Of a stretch of 56,267 nucleotides of DNA, positions 1 through 37,869 are shown one piece after another. Numbering within the stretch: the first letter of the stretch is position 1; the number at the start of each line of letters is the position of its first letter. Both the position numbers and the translations under genes were made by a program. Below the pieces are notes generated by a model. It saw only the letters and a program-made list of their open reading frames with translations. It made no database searches and was not told where the DNA came from. Source of the DNA: Candidatus Yanofskybacteria bacterium (lineage in GTDB: Bacteria > Patescibacteriota > Minisyncoccia > 2-02-FULL-40-12 > IGHO2-12-FULL-4); the NCBI GenBank assembly GCA_016185525.1, contig JACPNK010000004.1, positions 17,712 through 73,978 of the forward strand. The letters are read 5' to 3'.

Positions 1-132
1 TTATGCCCGCGCTTTCGCGATTGACCGTCAGCAAAGCCCCAGCAAGCTGCTTTCGCTTTTGGTGTTCCGTGCGATATCAACGGATTTCACCCCTACACCG
101 CACGTTCCGCTTGCCTCTGACTTGCTCTAGTT

Positions 133-294
133 ACAAGCCGTGCCTCGCTACCGCTCGCCACGAAATTTTTAATTTTACAATTTTCTAATTTTCAATCAAT
201 TCTTAATGTTTTAATTTTTAAACATTTTAAATTCAATGAAAATTTTAAATTGAAAATTCTAAATTGTGCCGAACGAAAGTGAGGCACAGATTGC
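133..294 (-). other. Hairpin intervening sequence in 16S (about E. coli 645-650) with an AT-rich inverted-repeat loop
   Basis: Stem GTGCCTCGCTACCGCTCGCCAC...GTGCCGAACGAAAGTGAGGCAC encloses degenerate AATTTT(C/A)N repeats. It interrupts GAAACGGCAA / AACTAGAG. Confidence 0.85.
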
Positions 295-604
295 CGTTTC
301 CGATGCGGCCTCACAGTTAAGCCATGAGATTTAACATCGGACTAGCAAAACCGGCTACTCGCTCTTTACGCCCAGTAATTCCGGATAACGCTTGGGGCCT
401 TCGTATTACCGCTCCTGCTGGCTAAAGTTACAACATAACTTAATTTTTATGTCTAACGTTGGACTATCTCACCATCCTTAAATAATTAAGGATGCTCAGC
501 GTATTATGGGAACTTAAAAATTCCCATCTCCAGGCACTTTCTAAGATTTCAAAAAAAGTGACTGGAAGTCTCTGAGGGGTTAATTTGTTCAAATTTTTGA
601 AGAC

Positions 605-633
605 TTGATTTTATACAAGTTACTATGTACAAT
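605..633 (+). promoter_or_regulatory. Sigma70-like promoter for the intron-internal antisense ORF
   Basis: TTGATT-17 nt-TACAAT, followed by GGAGG (656-660) and ATG at 665. Confidence 0.6.
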
Positions 634-664
634 TTTGTGGCACATTACCAAAATTGGAGGCCTA

Positions 665-856
665 ATGATTTATTATATCCTCGAAGGTAAATGGTCAAAC
701 AGTATAGCGGAAACATCTGGAACAGAACTCCACATTTTCCAAGCATACTCTGATGAACATGCCACAGAAAAGGCGCAAAGTTATGCCAATGCCCTTCGAT
801 TCAAAATTTCAAAGTTGCTTAAAGTAACTGCGGTAGAAAGAGTAGAAGTAGAATAA
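665..856 (+). CDS. Small hypothetical protein (63 aa) inside the S516 intron, antisense to the rRNA
   Basis: ORF with SD and promoter, enclosed by the inverted repeat TTGTTCAAATTTTT/AAAAATTTGAACAA. No homing-endonuclease motif recognised. Confidence 0.6.
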   Translation: MIYYILEGKWSNSIAETSGTELHIFQAYSDEHATEKAQSYANALRFKISKLLKVTAVERVEVE

Positions 857-1255
857 ATACAAAGAAAATCAAGGCCACAATCTTTCACTGAGCTTGAAGC
901 TCGGTTTTTTTCTCCAAAAATTTGAACAAATCAACTTCCCTGCTGATTTTCCAGTAATTTTGTTAATAAAAACCAACAAAATTTTAATTCAGATTGTCAC
1001 CTCAAAGGGTACTGAATTATTAACTGGGTTTTCCAGCATATAAGCCAAGTTTTTCCTTATTGCCTTACAGCAATAGGTCGCGCCCCCGCCCGAAGTGGCG
1101 GGAGTTTCCACGAAGTTAGGAGCCCCTTATTCGCCAGGTACCGTCACTCCGCCAAAAGGCGGATTCTTCCCTGGCAAAAGCGGTTTACAACCCTAAGGCC
1201 TTCTTCCCGCACGCGGCGTCGCTCGATCAGGCTTTCGCCCATTGTCGAAATTTGT

Positions 1256-1979
1256 CCACAATCACTTGTAGTATAGACTATGTCTTCTTCCCCAAAATAA
1301 TTGAGGAGCTAGCATATTATGGCCTCTAAAAAGAGCGCCATCCAAGTTTAACTAAACTTGAGTCGTTACGGGGTTAATGACCTCATAATTCTTTTTACCG
1401 CCTGCGCCTGAATTTATTTTCCTAATTTCCAGTGCCATGGAAAATAACTTTTCGAAATCTTTATCGGAGAGTGAACTTCTGATGTTCACTAGACCCTGAT
1501 CAAAGATATCAATCATGGCAAGCATTATTTTTGCTTGCCTTTGTTTAAGAATCAAATGCGGTAAAAGTCGCTCTAATACTCTTTTCAGATCTTCACGTTT
1601 CTGAATAACTAGTTCCGAAAGATTATGAGTTGGAGTGTATCTGACTGAACCAACCTTGCCCAAAGATTCTTGAAGCAGAAGCATTAAATTTTTATGCCTA
1701 ACATGCTGTGTAAAATTTATTTTCAATCTCACACGATATGGAAACCGGCGTCTATCTGGCCGCTTTTCTATAACAGCTACAATAGATCCGTCTCCATCAA
1801 GAAAACCGGCAATATATTGATCCGATACATTTTTTCCATTAACTTCCCACGGCGTTGTCTCCATATGGGGTATTATACTATAACCACTTATTTATGGTTA
1901 TAGTTGCTTATCCACAAAGAGGTTTCGCCGTTATAAGCTAGATTTTACTTCAACGTTACCGCTGAAGGAGACAAAATTT
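1256..1979 (-). mobile_element. Group I intron (IA3-like core) in 16S after about E. coli position 328; 3' boundary uncertain
   Basis: P1 GAGAT/GTCTC has a U.G pair. Core motifs: P AACGGCGAAA, Q AACGCCGTGG, R CGTAACGACT, S AAGACATAGTCT. P9 is CTACAA-GTGA-TTGTGG. Confidence 0.88.
1352..1864 (-). CDS. LAGLIDADG homing endonuclease (single motif), intron-encoded
   Basis: YIAGFLDGDGSI motif, FTQH, LLPHLILKQRQA. The C-terminal NPVTT overlaps the intron R element. Confidence 0.95.
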   Translation of the reverse strand: METTPWEVNGKNVSDQYIAGFLDGDGSIVAVIEKRPDRRRFPYRVRLKINFTQHVRHKNLMLLLQESLGKVGSVRYTPTHNLSELVIQKREDLKRVLERLLPHLILKQRQAKIMLAMIDIFDQGLVNIRSSLSDKDFEKLFSMALEIRKINSGAGGKKNYEVINPVTTQV

Positions 1980-2102
1980 ATCTCAGTTCCGTCGTTGGGG
2001 GCCGTGCTCTCACACCCCCTACCCGTCATAGCCTTGGTGAGCCATTACCTCGCCAACAAGCTGATAGGACATAGGCCGCTCACCGAGCAGATTGCTCCTT
2101 TA

Positions 2103-2227
2103 ATCGTGCCTCGCTACCGCGAGCCACTGGGCCAAAGTCTAAAGTCAAAAGTCTAAAGCCAGAAAATTCTTGCCTTAGTCTTTAGTCATTAAGCTTTAGT
2201 CAGTGACTCACAATAGTGAAGCACGAT
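2103..2227 (-). other. Hairpin intervening sequence in the 16S V2 region containing GACTAAA-type heptamer arms
   Basis: Stem ATCGTGCCTCGCTACCGC...GTGAAGCACGAT. Loop AAAGTCT-AAAGTCA-AAAGTCT...GCCTTAGTCTTTAGTCATTA. Confidence 0.85.
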
Positions 2228-2234
2228 GCCATTG

Positions 2235-2266
<32 letters not shown>

Positions 2267-2503
2267 ATCTCGGTGGTACGTACCAATGTGTTACTAACTC
2301 GTTCGCCACTGTGCAGAGTATTGCTACCCTGCACCGTTCGACTTGCATGCATCATCCACGCCGCCAGCGTTCATCCTGAGCTAGGATCAAACTCTCAAAA
2401 TAATTCGTCTAAGCTTAGCCGAAAGCCAAAATTAGACGAATAGTAAGTCTAGTTGACTGTAATAAATAACAACCTATTCAATTCTCAAAATGCTTTCCCT
2501 AAA

Positions 2504-7088: not shown

Positions 7089-7760
7089 TCATATGATATT
7101 CTTACGCCACTCCTTAATTTTTTTGTGGTCGCCTGATAAGAGGACTTTTGGCACTTTTAGTCTCTTTTTTCCCATAATAAAAACCTCTGGACGGGTATAC
7201 TGGGCGTGATCAGCTTTTTGCGCCGACTCTTTTTTAGCAATAAAACCGGGTATCAGTCTGGAAACCGACTCAATTACCGCCATGGCCGCCACTTCGCCGC
7301 CATTCAATACATAATCACCGATTGAAATAACTTCATCGGCAATATAATCAGCAACTCTTTCGTCAACTCCTTCATAACGTCCGCAGATAAAAATTAGCTG
7401 ATCTAGTTTAGCCCATTTTTTTGCCAACTCTTGCGTAAGTTTTTTACCTCGAGGGCTAAACAGTATTACTCTCTGTTTTAAGTTATAAGTTTTAGGTTTT
7501 ACGTTTTTGGATCTCTTACTTTTAACTTTTAACTCAATACTCTTAACTGCTTTAAAAATCGGCTCAATCTTTAACACCATCCCCGGTCCCCCGCCGTAAG
7601 GATTGTCGTCAACCGTCTTGTGCTTGTCTGTCGTCCATTTTCTTAAGTTGTGCAGACCGATTCTGATAATCTTCTTTTTTTGCCCGCGCGCCAAAAGAGA
7701 CTCACTCACAAAGCCTTTAAAAATTTCCGGGAAAATTGTAATAACATCAAATTGAATCAT
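7089..7760 (-). CDS. trmD: tRNA (guanine-N1)-methyltransferase
   Basis: VDDNPYGGGPGMV, CGRYEGVDERV, SIGDYVLNGGE, YTRPE, VPKVLLSGDH. Confidence 0.98.
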   Translation of the reverse strand: MIQFDVITIFPEIFKGFVSESLLARGQKKKIIRIGLHNLRKWTTDKHKTVDDNPYGGGPGMVLKIEPIFKAVKSIELKVKSKRSKNVKPKTYNLKQRVILFSPRGKKLTQELAKKWAKLDQLIFICGRYEGVDERVADYIADEVISIGDYVLNGGEVAAMAVIESVSRLIPGFIAKKESAQKADHAQYTRPEVFIMGKKRLKVPKVLLSGDHKKIKEWRKNII

Positions 7761-10229: not shown

Positions 10230-10919
10230 TTACCACCCCTTCTTCTTCAACGCTTCTTCTGCGGCTACTTGTTGGGCTTCCTGCTTGCTTAAGCCTTCGC
10301 CTTTAGCAACAAGTTCATCGCCCAAGAAAACTCCGACGTCAAAATGGCGGGCATGGTCCGGTCCCCATTCTTTGAGAACTTCGTAAGTCGGGGTAATACC
10401 AACTCTATCTTGCGCTTCTTCCTGAAATAAACTTTTCGGGTCGCGATAGGCTTTTTGCTCAATTATTACCGGCAGTTCTTCAATAATAAACCTGTTTATA
10501 AACTCTTCGGCTTTTTTGTAGCCTTGGTCTAGATAAATCGCCCCAATCAGAGCCTCTATGGCATTGGCCAAAATATATTGCCGAGCACGGCCGACATCTT
10601 TAGCTTCGCCGCGAGAAAGCAGAATGTAGTCGTTTAGATTAAATTTCTCACAAATTTTTGCCAGTATCACCGCATTGACTATCGCCGCCCGCCAGTTAGT
10701 CAGCTCGCCTTCCGGGTTGGGATAGTTATTATAAAGATAATCCGTCACAACCAATTCCAAAACCGCGTCGCCTAAAAATTCCAGACGCTCGTTGTGGTCC
10801 AAATACCATTTGGTATTTTCGTTCAAATAAGAACGATGGGTGAGGGCTTGCAGAAGAAGGTCCTTGTTCTTAAAAGTAACACCTATTTTATTCTCGAATT
10901 CAGAGAGTTTTTCCTGCAC
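10230..10919 (-). CDS. rnc: Ribonuclease III
   Basis: ALTHRS, NERLEFLGDAVL, and dsRBD DPKSLFQE...GPDH. Confidence 0.98.
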   Translation of the reverse strand: MQEKLSEFENKIGVTFKNKDLLLQALTHRSYLNENTKWYLDHNERLEFLGDAVLELVVTDYLYNNYPNPEGELTNWRAAIVNAVILAKICEKFNLNDYILLSRGEAKDVGRARQYILANAIEALIGAIYLDQGYKKAEEFINRFIIEELPVIIEQKAYRDPKSLFQEEAQDRVGITPTYEVLKEWGPDHARHFDVGVFLGDELVAKGEGLSKQEAQQVAAEEALKKKGW

Positions 10920-11553: not shown

Positions 11554-11625
11554 GTCTAATGACTAAAGACTAACGACTAAAGCTAGAGTTTCTGGCCTTA
11601 GACTTTGGTCTTTAGACCTTAAGCT
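11554..11625. repeat. GACTAAA/TTTAGAC heptamer hairpin; gene-less copy of the four-helix-bundle flanks
   Basis: 11595-11625 matches the reverse complement of 27611-27641 at 30/31 nt. Confidence 0.9.
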
Positions 11626-23077: not shown

Positions 23078-24655
23078 TCATAAACCAAATAATTCTGTCA
23101 ATATTTCCTGGACCACTTGCGGGTTTGCCTTGCCTTTTGTTGCCGCCATAACTTGGCCGACCAAAAATTTTAGAGATTCTGTTTTTCCTTTTTTGTAATC
23201 CTCAACGGCTTTGGGATTTTTAGCAACGACTTCCTCCACAGCTTTTTGCAATTCACCGGTATCAGAAACCTGGCCCAGATTTTTTTCTTTCATAATCGCT
23301 TCGGGATGCAGACCAGTCTCGGCCATTTCTTTCAAAACAGCTTTAGCTCCCGTAGAAGAAAGTTTCTCGTGAAAAATCAAAACCATAAGCTCGGCAAAAG
23401 CTTCAGGTGAAATTTTGAATCCTTCCAGTTCGTCAACTTCCAAACCCTTAGCGCTCATTAGCGACGGAAATTCTGTGATAATATAGTTAGCGGAAAGAGT
23501 ATGCAGTTTTGCTGGTAAATGGGCTTCTGTTTTTTCGTTTTGGTTTTGATGAATAACTTTTGCCGCTACATCAAGTTCTGTGGCAACTCTCTCGTAATAA
23601 TCCCCCAAATGCTTAGCAATGGTAAAAATTTCAATTTGAGAGTCATTTAGACCGTACTGTTTTTTAAATCTAATCTTCCTTCCTTCCGGCAATTCCGGCA
23701 TCAAATATTTAATATCTTCCAAATACTTCTCGTCAAAATTTAGTACCGGCAAATCCGGCTCTGGAAAATAGCGATAATCATGCGCCTCTTCTTTGCTTCT
23801 CTGACTGAAAGTTTTTTGTCCAGCTTCATCCCAACCCCGAGTTTCTTGTTTAACTTCTTTTCCCTCTTCCAGCAATTCTGTTTGTCTTTTAATTTCATAT
23901 TCCACAGATTGAGCCGCCGCTCTAATGGAGTTTAAGTTTTTAATCTCAACCTTCGTTCCCAACTTTATAACTTGGGACTTAGAACTTAGAACTTCCGGTC
24001 GAAGTGATATGTTCACTTCGATCCGGTATTGTCCTTTTTCCATGTTGGCATCCGAAACACCAAGATAACGCAAAATCAAACGCAATTTCTCGGCAAATTC
24101 TTTAACCTCTTCCGCGCTGTTTAAATCCGGCTCCGTCACAAGCTCCATCAACGGCACCCCTGCCCTGTTAAAGTCCACCAAGCTATGATCGCCTTTGCTG
24201 TCATGCTGAAGCCGCCCAGCATCTTCCTCTAAGTGAATCCGTGTGATTCGAATGCGCTTAAAGTCTAAGGTCGAAAGACTAATGCTCTGATTATTCTGGC
24301 CTTGGTCGTTAGTCTTTAGACTTTTGTCACTGATCTCCAACCAGCCGTTTGCGCAAAGCGGTCTTTTATATTGGGAAATTTGATAGCCTTTGGGCAAATC
24401 GGGGTAAAAGTAATTTTTTCGGTCAAAATTAGTCTGCTTAGCAATCTCACAATTCAAAGCAAAACCGACTAAAATGGTTTTCTTTATCGCCTCTTCATTT
24501 ATAACCGGGAGAACCCCCGGAAAACCCATACAAATAGGGCAAATGTTTGTATTCGGGTGTTTCTCGTCCGGATCGTTCAACGAATCGCAGAACATTTTTG
24601 TCCTGGTTTTCAGCTCTGCATGAATCTCCAGCCCGATTGTGGGTTTATAGTTCAT
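23078..24655 (-). CDS. gatB: Asp/Glu-tRNA amidotransferase subunit B
   Basis: IGLEIHAEL, RKNYFYPDLPKGYQISQ, HLEEDAG, DYRYFPEPDLP. Confidence 0.99.
   Translation of the reverse strand: MNYKPTIGLEIHAELKTRTKMFCDSLNDPDEKHPNTNICPICMGFPGVLPVINEEAIKKTILVGFALNCEIAKQTNFDRKNYFYPDLPKGYQISQYKRPLCANGWLEISDKSLKTNDQGQNNQSISLSTLDFKRIRITRIHLEEDAGRLQHDSKGDHSLVDFNRAGVPLMELVTEPDLNSAEEVKEFAEKLRLILRYLGVSDANMEKGQYRIEVNISLRPEVLSSKSQVIKLGTKVEIKNLNSIRAAAQSVEYEIKRQTELLEEGKEVKQETRGWDEAGQKTFSQRSKEEAHDYRYFPEPDLPVLNFDEKYLEDIKYLMPELPEGRKIRFKKQYGLNDSQIEIFTIAKHLGDYYERVATELDVAAKVIHQNQNEKTEAHLPAKLHTLSANYIITEFPSLMSAKGLEVDELEGFKISPEAFAELMVLIFHEKLSSTGAKAVLKEMAETGLHPEAIMKEKNLGQVSDTGELQKAVEEVVAKNPKAVEDYKKGKTESLKFLVGQVMAATKGKANPQVVQEILTELFGL
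24256..24328. repeat. Heptamer hairpin element inserted in frame in gatB
   Basis: The two arms match the four-helix-bundle gene flanks at about 24/30 and 25/30 nt, with a 13-nt loop. Confidence 0.85.
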
Positions 24656-27189: not shown

Positions 27190-27609
27190 CTATTTCACCT
27201 CTACCCCCATATTTCTTGCTGTGCCCTCAATGATTCTCATGGCTCCCTCAACGTCATTGGCATTTAAATCTTCCATTTTCAGTTGAGCTATCTCTCTGAC
27301 TTGACCCTTCGTAACACTGCCGACCTTTTTTTTGTTCGGCTCACCGGAGCCTTTTTCAACTTTAGCCGCCTTGAGCAAAAGACTGGCCGCCGGAGGGGTC
27401 TTTAATTTAAAGTCAAAAGTCCTGTCTTCATAAACGGTAATTTCAGCCGGAATAACCTGCCCCATCTTGTCCCGAGTCGCCTCGTTAAACTTGAGAACAA
27501 ATTCCTGGATATTTAATCCGTGCTGTCCTAAAGCCGGCCCAACCGGAGGCGCCGGTGTTGCCTTACCGGCATCAATCTGAAGTTTTAATACAGTTTTAAT
27601 TTTCTTCAT
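27190..27609 (-). CDS. rplK: 50S ribosomal protein L11
   Basis: [34 protein letters not shown]. Confidence 0.99.
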
Positions 27610-27610
27610 A

Positions 27611-28016
27611 AGCTTAAGGTCTAAAGACTAAAGTCTAAGGCTAGAAATTAAAGATTTAATTTTAGAAGCCAACAAACAACTGTCTTTATAAAAACCGTCA
27701 AATTCGCTTTTCACAATAAAATTTAGATCTAAGGAAATATATAATCCGGTTACGGTTTCGTTAAGTGATCCCAAAGAAATTCTTAGAAATCTTTTAAACT
27801 CTGGGTCCGACTTCTTGTCACTACCTTCCGCTATATTTAAAGCTATGGAAACTGCCGCTCGTCTTAATTGGCTTGTTAGTCCAAAAAGTTCGCTCTTTGG
27901 AAACTTACCTGTAATTTTATAAATATCGGCACTAAACTTTTTTGCTAATTTCCAAATTTCTAAATTCTCAAATCGATAATACATGCCTTAGTCTTTCGTC
28001 ATTAGACTTTAGTCTT
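27611..28016 (-). mobile_element. Candidate element: heptamer-repeat inverted arms bracketing a four-helix-bundle gene
   Basis: The 5' arm AAGACTAAAGTCTAATGACGAAAGACTAAGGC ends at the ATG. The 3' arm GCCTTAGACTTTAGTCTTTAGACCTTAAGCT contains the stop codon. It sits between nusG and rplK. Confidence 0.65.
27628..27984 (-). CDS. Four helix bundle protein (23S rRNA IVP family, TIGR02436/PF05635-like)
   Basis: FENLEIW, FPKSELFGLTSQLRRAAVSIALNIAEG, FLRISLGSLNE. Confidence 0.95.
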   Translation of the reverse strand: MYYRFENLEIWKLAKKFSADIYKITGKFPKSELFGLTSQLRRAAVSIALNIAEGSDKKSDPEFKRFLRISLGSLNETVTGLYISLDLNFIVKSEFDGFYKDSCLLASKIKSLISSLRL

Positions 28017-28562
28017 TTATAATTTCTTAATCTGCAAAAAGTCCAATTCAACCGGTGTCTCTCTGCCAAACATCGTCACTAAGACCTTGATTCTGCCACG
28101 CTCTTCATCAACTTCCGAAACTCTGCCGTCAAAGTCCTTGAACGGACCGTCTGTAATTTTGACGTTATCGCCTACCACAATATCAAACTTATACTTGGGC
28201 TCGTCCACGCCCGTTCTTTTTATGAGGGCCTCGGCCTCCTCTTTTGACAAAGGTGTCGGAATAACACCGGCGCCGATAAAACCGGTAACGTTCGGCGTGT
28301 TTCTGACGACATACCACGAATCATCGGTAACAATCATCTCAACCAAAACATAACCCGGAAAAATTTTTTCTTCAACCGTCTCTCTCTTACCGCCTTTTAT
28401 TTTTATCTTTTTCTCCTTGGGCACCAAAACATTAAAAATCTTGTCTTCATACCCTAAAGACTCAATACGCTGTCTCAAGCCGTTGGCAACATTATCCTCA
28501 TAACCTGAATAAGTATGTATAGCATACCAATGTTTTTCCCCGGTTGTAGCTTGCTTTGCCAT
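28017..28562 (-). CDS. nusG: Transcription termination/antitermination factor NusG
   Basis: WYAIHTYSGYE, FPGYVLVEM, VRNTPNVTGF, MFGRETPVELDF. Confidence 0.99.
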   Translation of the reverse strand: MAKQATTGEKHWYAIHTYSGYEDNVANGLRQRIESLGYEDKIFNVLVPKEKKIKIKGGKRETVEEKIFPGYVLVEMIVTDDSWYVVRNTPNVTGFIGAGVIPTPLSKEEAEALIKRTGVDEPKYKFDIVVGDNVKITDGPFKDFDGRVSEVDEERGRIKVLVTMFGRETPVELDFLQIKKL

Positions 28563-37080: not shown

Positions 37081-37869
37081 CTTACTACTTCAGCTTTCGC
37101 TGCTCCTTTCGGATTTGTAGTCTGGACTATCCCTTTACCAGTCCTTATTTTATTAGAACAAGGATTGTGGTATCTGCCAACTAGTCTCTACACCTGCCTA
37201 CGCCAAAGGCTGCGGCAGGCAAGCCTTCTCTCTTGCGAAGTAAGCTTGCTTGCAATCCAAAGCTTTAGCGAAGGATTGGTTCGGGATTACCACTATTATC
37301 CAAACAAGACAGTAAAGGCTTCCCCGAATTTGACAGATTATCTTCTAAGCTATTCCTAACTTAGACGCCCTAAGTTGTTTAAAATACGAATTCTTGGTAT
37401 ACTACCAACACATGAGAAAGTCTTTAACTAGAAGTGCTTCTATCTACAAGTACAAAAATCCTTCGGGCGACCCTTTTGATTATAAACCAGAAATTAGTAG
37501 GGAATTGGAAATTGTAGGCTTGCTACTCTGGGTCACAGAAGGAGATCGAACACAGTTATCTCTTGCAAACGGAAACCCCACTATAATTCTACGTTATCTG
37601 GATTTTCTCCGTAAGATTTGTGGTCTAAAAGAAGAAAAAATCAAAGCTGTAGTACACTGCCACGATACATTGCCCTACAAAAAATGCCTGGGATATTGGT
37701 CTGAAATTACCAACATACCAAAAACCCGATTTACAAAACCTTACATTAAACCGGACAAAGGAGGACATAGAAAATATCCCTATGGCATCCTTAGAATAGC
37801 GGCAATGAATATCAAGCTAATCCGTATTTTTAACGAACGATTGAGAGAGTTGGGTCTCTCTAAAGATTG
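37081..37869 (-). mobile_element. Group I intron (IC3-like) between U33 and C34 of tRNA-fMet
   Basis: Exon ends in U and intron ends in G. Core motifs: P AAATTCGGGGAA, Q AATCCCGAACC, R GTAGAGACTAG, S AAGGGATAGTCC. Confidence 0.93.

Follow-up and report, generated by a model that had tools for sequence, protein, structure and literature searches.

The window analysed here, a whole stretch of 56,267 nucleotides, is part of contig C5 of a Candidatus Yanofskybacteria genome (G000; 812 kb in 8 contigs, 42% G+C), and this DNA was found in groundwater metagenomes. On the minus strand, secE, nusG (28017-28562), an ORF of 118 amino acids (27628-27984) and rplK (27190-27609) follow one another, and the ORF is bracketed by two inverted arms (27610-27641 and 27985-28016) of 32 nt each, which are 81% complementary and contain a perfect core of 16 nt. 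Read in gene sense on the minus strand, the 5' arm (27985-28016) consists of four to five tandem GWCTAAR heptamers and extends from the nusG stop to the ATG of the ORF (27982-27984), which it abuts; the 3' arm (27610-27641) is built of complementary heptamers, holds the final codons of the ORF together with its TAG stop (27628-27630) and ends at the ATG of rplK. Both the neighbour coordinates and the profile matches agree with a first-pass annotation of this DNA, which had placed a gene of the TIGR02436/PF05635 family between nusG and rplK, with one arm ending at its ATG and the complementary arm holding its stop. Searches of the window with the core AGACTAAAGTCTA, allowing up to two mismatches, gave 10 matches against 1.28 expected, a number reached in 0 of 100 shuffles. 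In the computed fold of a 427-nt RNA stretch with the cassette, the arms were paired in both the minimum free energy and the centroid structure (z = -2.99). No terminator-like sites were seen in the cassette arms, and promoter-like sites were at background level. In addition, metagenome contigs from four DNA runs of one study covered the element at 100% identity, and two of these runs may be its source. A joint from 27442 to 28036 in two runs, skipping 593 nt, was discarded; its sides were 35 nt long with undetermined letters between them, and it may come from a relative.

The product of the ORF is a four-helix-bundle protein of the S23p/Avd-like type, which matched PF05635 (E = 1.2e-34, 119.2 bits, curated cut-off 33.8) and TIGR02436 (E = 2.4e-33, 114.6 bits, cut-off 24). 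Its relatives in the PDB, 2gsc (E = 1.3e-19) and 2rld, were both deposited with five chains. The conserved GxxRxxxSxxxNxxE motif of the family (Zhang 2013, PMC3936711) was present, and Q39, R42, S46, N50, E53 and E76 were invariant across 17 aligned sequences; these invariant polar residues suggest a binding or catalytic site. Avd is described in the available text of PMC10053308 as a homologue of PF05635 with a pentameric four-helix-bundle fold, and judged from that paper and the PDB sequence matches, the cargo protein is related to Avd. PADLOC gave no match.

Gene-less hairpins in the same genome

A scan of the genome for arrays of three consecutive GWCTAAR-type units yielded 25 arrays pairing into 13 loci; tandem arrays at lag 7 numbered 25, where lags 5, 6 and 8-11 gave 0-13. 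One of the 13 hairpin loci in the 812 kb bears the gene and 12 are gene-less, with arms and a short loop. Four of the gene-less hairpins form rRNA helix tips (one in 16S and three in 23S), five occupy tight operon junctions (rpoB|rpoC, groES|groEL, rplC|rplD, hisS|HIT and 71-aa ORF|nusB-rnc), and three lie in frame within gatB, an EF-G/LepA-like GTPase gene and the RNase HII gene. All 13 GWCTAAA hairpins are found on three of the eight contigs (C1, C2 and C5; 368 of 812 kb) and within rRNA or core information-processing genes. Compared with the Rfam models, the 16S hairpin takes up 104 nt in place of 3, and the 23S inserts lie near model positions 583, 1890 (110 nt for 13) and 2820 (108 nt for 5), sites that we take to be near H25, H68 and H98 in E. 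coli helix numbering.

Both the 16S and the 23S rRNA genes of this genome are also interrupted by group I introns. The 16S gene (window 1-2394) contains a LAGLIDADG ORF (1352-1864, minus strand) and large insertions, and the 23S gene (C2:13216-22823) spans about 9.6 kb with at least three group I introns. A further group I intron match (51 bits) lies outside rRNA, at 37100-37391 of the window (minus strand), near tRNA-Met.

Three gene-less hairpins of the window were compared with the cassette. The first (11554-11625, z = -2.29) is situated between the 71-aa ORF, named rpmF in the first-pass annotation, and nusB-rnc, and its reverse complement matches one cassette arm at 30/31 positions and the second at 23/27; earlier values were 30/31 and 19/20. 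The 16S copy (2131-2201, minus strand, z = -3.55), at a helix tip in the V2 region, matches at 22/26 and 27/30 over both arms, where 19/20 in one arm had been given. For the gatB copy (24256-24328, minus strand), translated in frame as amino acids 110-131 of 525, the approximate 24/30 given earlier for one arm was recovered, and the second arm, put at about 25/30, came to 24/27 on rechecking. This copy was rightly called in frame: its ORF frame is free of stops, and the two remaining frames contain 2 and 3. All three in-frame copies of the genome are stop-free in the ORF frame and carry 1-4 stops in the others, and in each of them the in-frame unit reads GAC CAA, not GAC TAA.

Among the copies, fold z-scores extended from -1.6 in the most degenerate one, that in gatB, to -9.2, and mismatches recurred regularly along the stems, about every 7 bp. 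Heptamer copy number differed among copies, with 8 units in rplC|rplD for example. The orientation of the gene-less copies relative to host transcription was ambiguous in 9 of 12, and the three clear cases comprised two in the same and one in the opposite direction. By eye, no conserved target tetranucleotide was seen beside the 13 copies. Of the 12 gene-less copies, 7 retained a AATTTCTAGCC-like stretch that is the same as the gene's inner 3' junction, which bears out the earlier suggestion that arm-only hairpins are related to the gene-bearing element; such remnants would fit an internal deletion and also a gene lodged in an older loop. The 11554 hairpin and nusB are followed by the RNase III gene rnc (10230-10919, minus strand; PF14622, E = 1.4e-44), and it is presumably this host enzyme that would act on the stems. 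Tandem heptamers of other unit types were also observed as single arrays in ORFs, translated in frame and in several cases within membrane proteins; they lie at window positions 7479-7507 and at C2:161552, C3:37138, C3:45343, C3:50780, C3:57140, C3:57401, C7:90360, C7:90554 and C8:18356.

Filled and empty sites in related genomes

The nusG|rplK interval, taken to include the rplK ATG, was compared in 30 genomes. It measures at most 11 nt in 10 of them; in G003, a genome of the same genus with 99% identity in NusG, it is 7 nt long. A PF05635 cassette with GWCTAAR arms is present in G000, G006 and G018. At the same junction, G001, G029 and G014 (L055, L060 and L061) carry a cassette of about 450 nt with CGAAT-type arms that encodes a GxxExxY protein (TIGR04256, E = 5e-23), G011 (L059) carries a 72-aa GIY-YIG-like ORF (a weak match), G005 has a gene-less 9-mer hairpin, and the remaining compared genomes have other inserts. 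These GxxExxY and GIY-YIG-like genes have arms similar to those of the PF05635 cassette, so that the arms are not private to PF05635, which weakens the case for a function of the arms that is specific to PF05635; judged from these sequences, the hairpin design also carries other cargo.

Empty sites were sought in relatives at the other positions, and presence/absence polymorphism was found at gatB, rpmF|nusB, 16S and groES|groEL as well as at nusG|rplK. Exactly 66 nt are missing from gatB in the same-genus genomes G003 and G001, which makes the copy in G000 a net insertion of 66 nt; G018 has an insertion at the same residues, G005 has none, and G037 has just an unrelated stretch of 7 residues there. 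The GatB of G018 (L321) also contains a further insertion of about 50 residues between its N-terminal and C-terminal domains, which is absent in G000 and G005 and shorter in G037. In G002, the rpmF|nusB spacer is empty at about 8 nt, and the 16S hairpin site is empty as well, with a helix about 115 nt shorter. No target-site duplication was detected at the filled-versus-empty junctions of nusG|rplK, gatB, rpmF|nusB and 16S. The arms and the gene behave as a single unit, as had been proposed when they were taken together as a full element.

The groES|groEL junction (L324-L353) is a second hot spot, with spacers of 1 to 202 nt. Its spacer is at most 5 nt long in 6 of 30 genomes, and hairpins of four unrelated units (GWCTAAA, TCTAAAT-type, CAATTTT-type and a 9-mer type) occur there in others; four unrelated units together with empty sites argue that hairpins of this class were inserted there independently and more than once. 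An insert of another kind, about 190-200 nt long, is common to G003, G005 and G026 at this junction.

Hits to GWCTAAA arrays numbered 53 in G000 (control 3), 101 in G018 (control 8) and 21 in G006 (control 0), against a background level of 0-2 in the same-genus genomes G001-G003. Such arrays were also present in G030 and G037, in smaller numbers; GWCTAAA hairpins occur in both genomes, though none of their detected PF05635 genes has GWCTAAA-type arms. G018 belongs to another family and nonetheless has at least three sites in common with G000: the cassette at nusG|rplK, the insertion in gatB and the hairpin at groES|groEL. Between these two genomes the element is as diverged as its nusG and rplK flanks (nucleotide identity of about 0.7), and no conversion tract or identity peak was found around the shared insertions. 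The lack of an identity peak leaves recent transfer by recombination unsupported, and the equal divergence of element and flanks suggests that the family is old and gives no sign of recent movement. Judged from these comparisons, the hairpin family is old and is cleanly gained or lost; the shared sites would reflect either many clean losses or more than one site-specific insertion, gain being indistinguishable from loss. The first-pass annotation had proposed a candidate mobile or RNA-processing system, and its reading is supported in part, for the unit, the family and its polymorphism; RNA processing and an action of the protein on the hairpins are putative, and the element is old and not recently active, given the equal divergence of element and flanks in G000 and G018.

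Repeat arms around PF05635 genes in other bacteria

At least one PF05635 gene was detected in 29 of 41 sampled relatives. A locus was called positive for arms when its score exceeded the 99th percentile of shifted controls. Among the PF05635 loci of relatives, 22 of 29 scored at least 13, and the shifted controls never exceeded 11.5. A cross-phylum sample, drawn from Patescibacteria, Gammaproteobacteria, Bacteroidota, Elusimicrobiota, Acidobacteriota, Verrucomicrobia, Kiritimatiellaeota and Firmicutes, gave 60 positive loci out of 78 (80 were sampled and two lay too close to a contig end); it was fetched with an alignment of three sequences and is biased towards relatives of the paralogue on C6. 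Pooled, 82 of 112 PF05635 loci in at least eight phyla carried inverted tandem-repeat arms and 30 had no detectable arms, so that homologous genes are indeed flanked by such arms, as the earlier reading anticipated. The median arm length was 28 nt, and the repeat period among 79 arms of at least 16 nt was 7 in 61, 8 in 14, 9 in 3 and 5 in 1.

The stop codon lay in or touched the 3' arm in 39 of the 82 armed loci. In 67 of 113 loci (59%), each of the three frames contained a stop in the 42 nt before the start, versus 13 of 138 control ORFs. The upstream neighbour was co-directional in 99 of 112 PF05635 loci, with a median gap of 39 nt. One gene among 114 sampled was borne by rRNA; this sole case (L039, G021:C10) is a PF05635 gene with repeat arms in the 5' region of a 16S rRNA gene. 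Sharing of arm 7-mers rose with protein identity (Spearman 0.247; 0 of 500 permutations reached this value), in line with the proposal that heptamer type follows the phylogeny of the protein; co-variation of this kind would also arise from linkage alone.

Individual genomes illustrate the range of arms and satellites. The two other PF05635 genes of G000 have heptamer arms of their own, of TAGGTTC and GACAAAT type. Four of five PF05635 genes inspected in Moorena (of six matches) had arms of distinct repeat units. The 9-mer arm pattern of the gene in G005 gave 46 hits against 0 in the control, and the GAGACAA arms of the cassette in G003 gave no genome hits beyond the gene itself, that is, no satellites. 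PF05635-type matches were present in 30 plasmid records, mostly cyanobacterial, and the three plasmid genes inspected comprised one with clear inverted heptamer arms, one with non-complementary arrays and one with a downstream array alone; in phage records, tblastn at 1e-6 gave no match to a PF05635-type protein.

These arms resemble heptamer repeats that have been described as orphans, namely GGGAATC in Xanthomonas, GGGGAYT in Nostoc, TAACTGA in Beggiatoaceae and STRR in Calothrix. According to the available sections of PMC4692102 and PMC4679880, such repeats often form convergent inverted pairs, lie between genes and within operons, contain stops in three frames and often abut start codons, features that are shared by the arms in G000. 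For the Xanthomonas repeat, 186 sites with 70 inverted pairs are given, and no associated gene is reported in the available part of the paper (Rehm et al., PMC4692102). In contrast, we found in two Xanthomonas species a single PF05635 gene between accB and accC that is bracketed by GGGAATC-type arms, and a related arm at the accB-accC site of Luteimonas. In the full-text literature, subscription journals lying outside its coverage, no paper was found that links PF05635 genes to repeat arms or to dispersed gene-less copies.

The closest likeness is to the 23S intervening sequences (IVSs) with an S23p ORF in Coxiella and Leptospira, which share with the cassette the protein family and an ORF held in the stem loop of terminal inverted repeats. 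In the Coxiella IVS, as described in the available portion of PMC4990558, tandem GACAGAT heptamers lie directly before the S23p ATG, their number varies among strains, and the IVS is cut by RNase III. The G000 cassette has the same long-stem terminal inverted repeats around its insert, and four gene-less copies sit at rRNA helix tips. It differs from rRNA IVSs in that the gene-bearing copy lies in an mRNA operon junction (nusG|rplK) instead of at an rRNA tip, and in that the family also has copies in frame within proteins.

Nature of the cassette and competing explanations

Taken together, we consider it probable, at roughly 0.6, that the gene at 27628-27984 is the cargo of an IVS-type selfish insertion cassette of about 407 bp that rides host operons. 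The cassette is a promoter-less small ORF of the PF05635 family in the loop of a tandem-heptamer hairpin of about 30 bp, placed in a tight junction of an essential operon.

First among the alternatives, the hairpins might be REP-like sequences moved in trans by Y1 (HUH, RAYT/IS200-like) transposases through single-strand "peel and paste", with the four-helix-bundle gene as a passenger in the loop. The first-pass annotation had noted no transposase, integrase or reverse transcriptase (RT) in the window, and this is correct for the window; the genome holds two RT genes and four Y1-transposase-like genes of 212-263 aa matching PF01797 (C1:74799-75437, C7:3152-3943, C1:100015-100713 and C2:149345-149989; best E = 4.3e-12). 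One of the four lies directly upstream of the hairpin-bearing GTPase gene, and at least three have their own flanking perfect hairpins or tandem repeats of 13 nt. The clean empty sites and the missing target-site duplication also suit IS200/IS605 chemistry, and REP/RAYT and IS200/IS605 systems share with our family short, dispersed intergenic hairpins and clean excision. However, the hairpins and repeats at the Y1-like genes are unrelated sequences and not heptamer arrays, no Y1 gene lies in or beside the armed cassettes, and the G000 arms are tandem repeats with copies that also occur in rRNA and ORFs. Since the by-eye inspection of the 13 copies gave no common target tetranucleotide, and the association of PF05635 with arms spans phyla and co-varies with the protein, we regard this explanation as unlikely.

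Second, the hairpins could be non-mobile regulatory or processing signals of the host under selection (RNase III sites, mRNA stabilisers or coupling devices), one of which is used by the gene. Such a role would suit the placement of the 13 copies, all of them in rRNA or in operons for transcription, translation or chaperones, as well as the copy upstream of nusB-rnc and the three sites common to the distant genome G018. Against it, same-genus genomes are without any GWCTAAA hairpins, the same junctions hold hairpins of unrelated units in other genomes (four types at groES|groEL), and copies in frame within three enzymes are hard to view as regulators; we hold this account to be unlikely as well.

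A third possibility, that nothing moves and that slippage of simple-sequence repeats during replication creates the arms on the spot, selection for complementarity coming later, draws on the variable heptamer number among copies and among Coxiella strains (PMC4990558, in its available part) and on the bacterial excess of heptamer repeats, ascribed to polymerase slippage in work cited in the available sections of PMC4692102 and PMC4679880; it is very improbable, as copies share non-repeat bases (the 30/31 match includes AGCTTAAGG, and loop remnants occur in 7 of 12) and the distribution of GWCTAAA across genomes is all-or-none. Equally improbable is a role of the protein as a diversity-generating retroelement (DGR) accessory factor acting with the two RTs of the genome on retro-copied hairpins: the homology to Avd (PMC10053308, available text) and the presence of the two RT genes speak for it, but neither an RT nor a template or variable repeat adjoins the cassette, the three armed PF05635 genes of G000 have no RT in their vicinity, the RTs are on other contigs, and the DGR on C2 has an Avd-like ORF of its own, whose similarity to the PF05635 profile is marginal (hhalign probability 26%). 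In that DGR (C2:42634-46239, L050), a target gene whose C-terminus resembles a variable repeat is accompanied by a template-like copy, an Avd-like ORF of 115 aa and an RT of 314 aa; the second RT gene, at C8:33175-33783, contains an internal TGA.

Other palindromic elements offer partial parallels. Rickettsia palindromic elements are likewise insertions tolerated in frame in protein genes, and Correia elements and similar MITEs are co-transcribed palindromes cut by RNase III; both differ from the present family in having no tandem-repeat arms. We know of no "full-length" form of this kind with a small ORF for either group. As to MITEs and transposons more generally, there is no target-site duplication at the filled-versus-empty junctions, and the cargo is not a known transposase.

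Under the selfish-cassette reading, the cassette would be transcribed together with the operon of the host. With a TAA or TAG in every repeat unit, any arriving ribosome would stop in the arm; incoming ribosomes would end in the 5' arm and restart at the abutting ATG, and the 3' arm would supply the stop of the cargo and pass ribosomes on to the next host gene. Such a hand-on to the downstream gene would also hold the cargo ORF under selection. By analogy with the rRNA IVSs of Coxiella (PMC4990558, available part), the folded stem may be a substrate of RNase III. Copies may spread or be lost through a hairpin-dependent, duplication-free DNA mechanism, and the protein, presumably a pentamer, most probably binds arms built of its own family's repeats.

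A wider proposal, which we put forward tentatively and regard as rather doubtful, is that PF05635 pentamers are sequence-specific repeat-binding factors of hairpin cassettes across phyla, which insert cleanly into transcribed DNA and are cleanly excised from it. About one protomer would bind each repeat unit, because the median arm of 28 nt corresponds to about 4 units. Gene-less offspring of these cassettes would account for rRNA IVSs and for the excess of heptamer repeats in bacteria (GGGAATC and STRR-like), and related cassettes would carry small nucleases (GxxExxY and GIY-YIG).

PF05635 genes are common and have been without an assigned function since 1993. The locus joins three puzzles, PF05635 genes, rRNA intervening sequences and heptamer simple-sequence repeats, in one anatomy of repeat arms, a small ORF and gene-less derivatives, and, as far as comparative data go, the evidence suggests that selfish insertion cassettes of an undescribed kind are widespread. 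Essential enzymes are seen here to tolerate a palindromic element within their reading frames, and the hairpin family accounts for some of the rRNA insertions that characterise groundwater bacteria with small genomes. As a caution for annotators, PF05635 genes in operons, including those that occur within cas loci (PMC3936711), may be insertions and not partners of their neighbours. In addition, the anatomy yields predictions on binding, RNase III processing and translational relay that are testable in culturable hosts.
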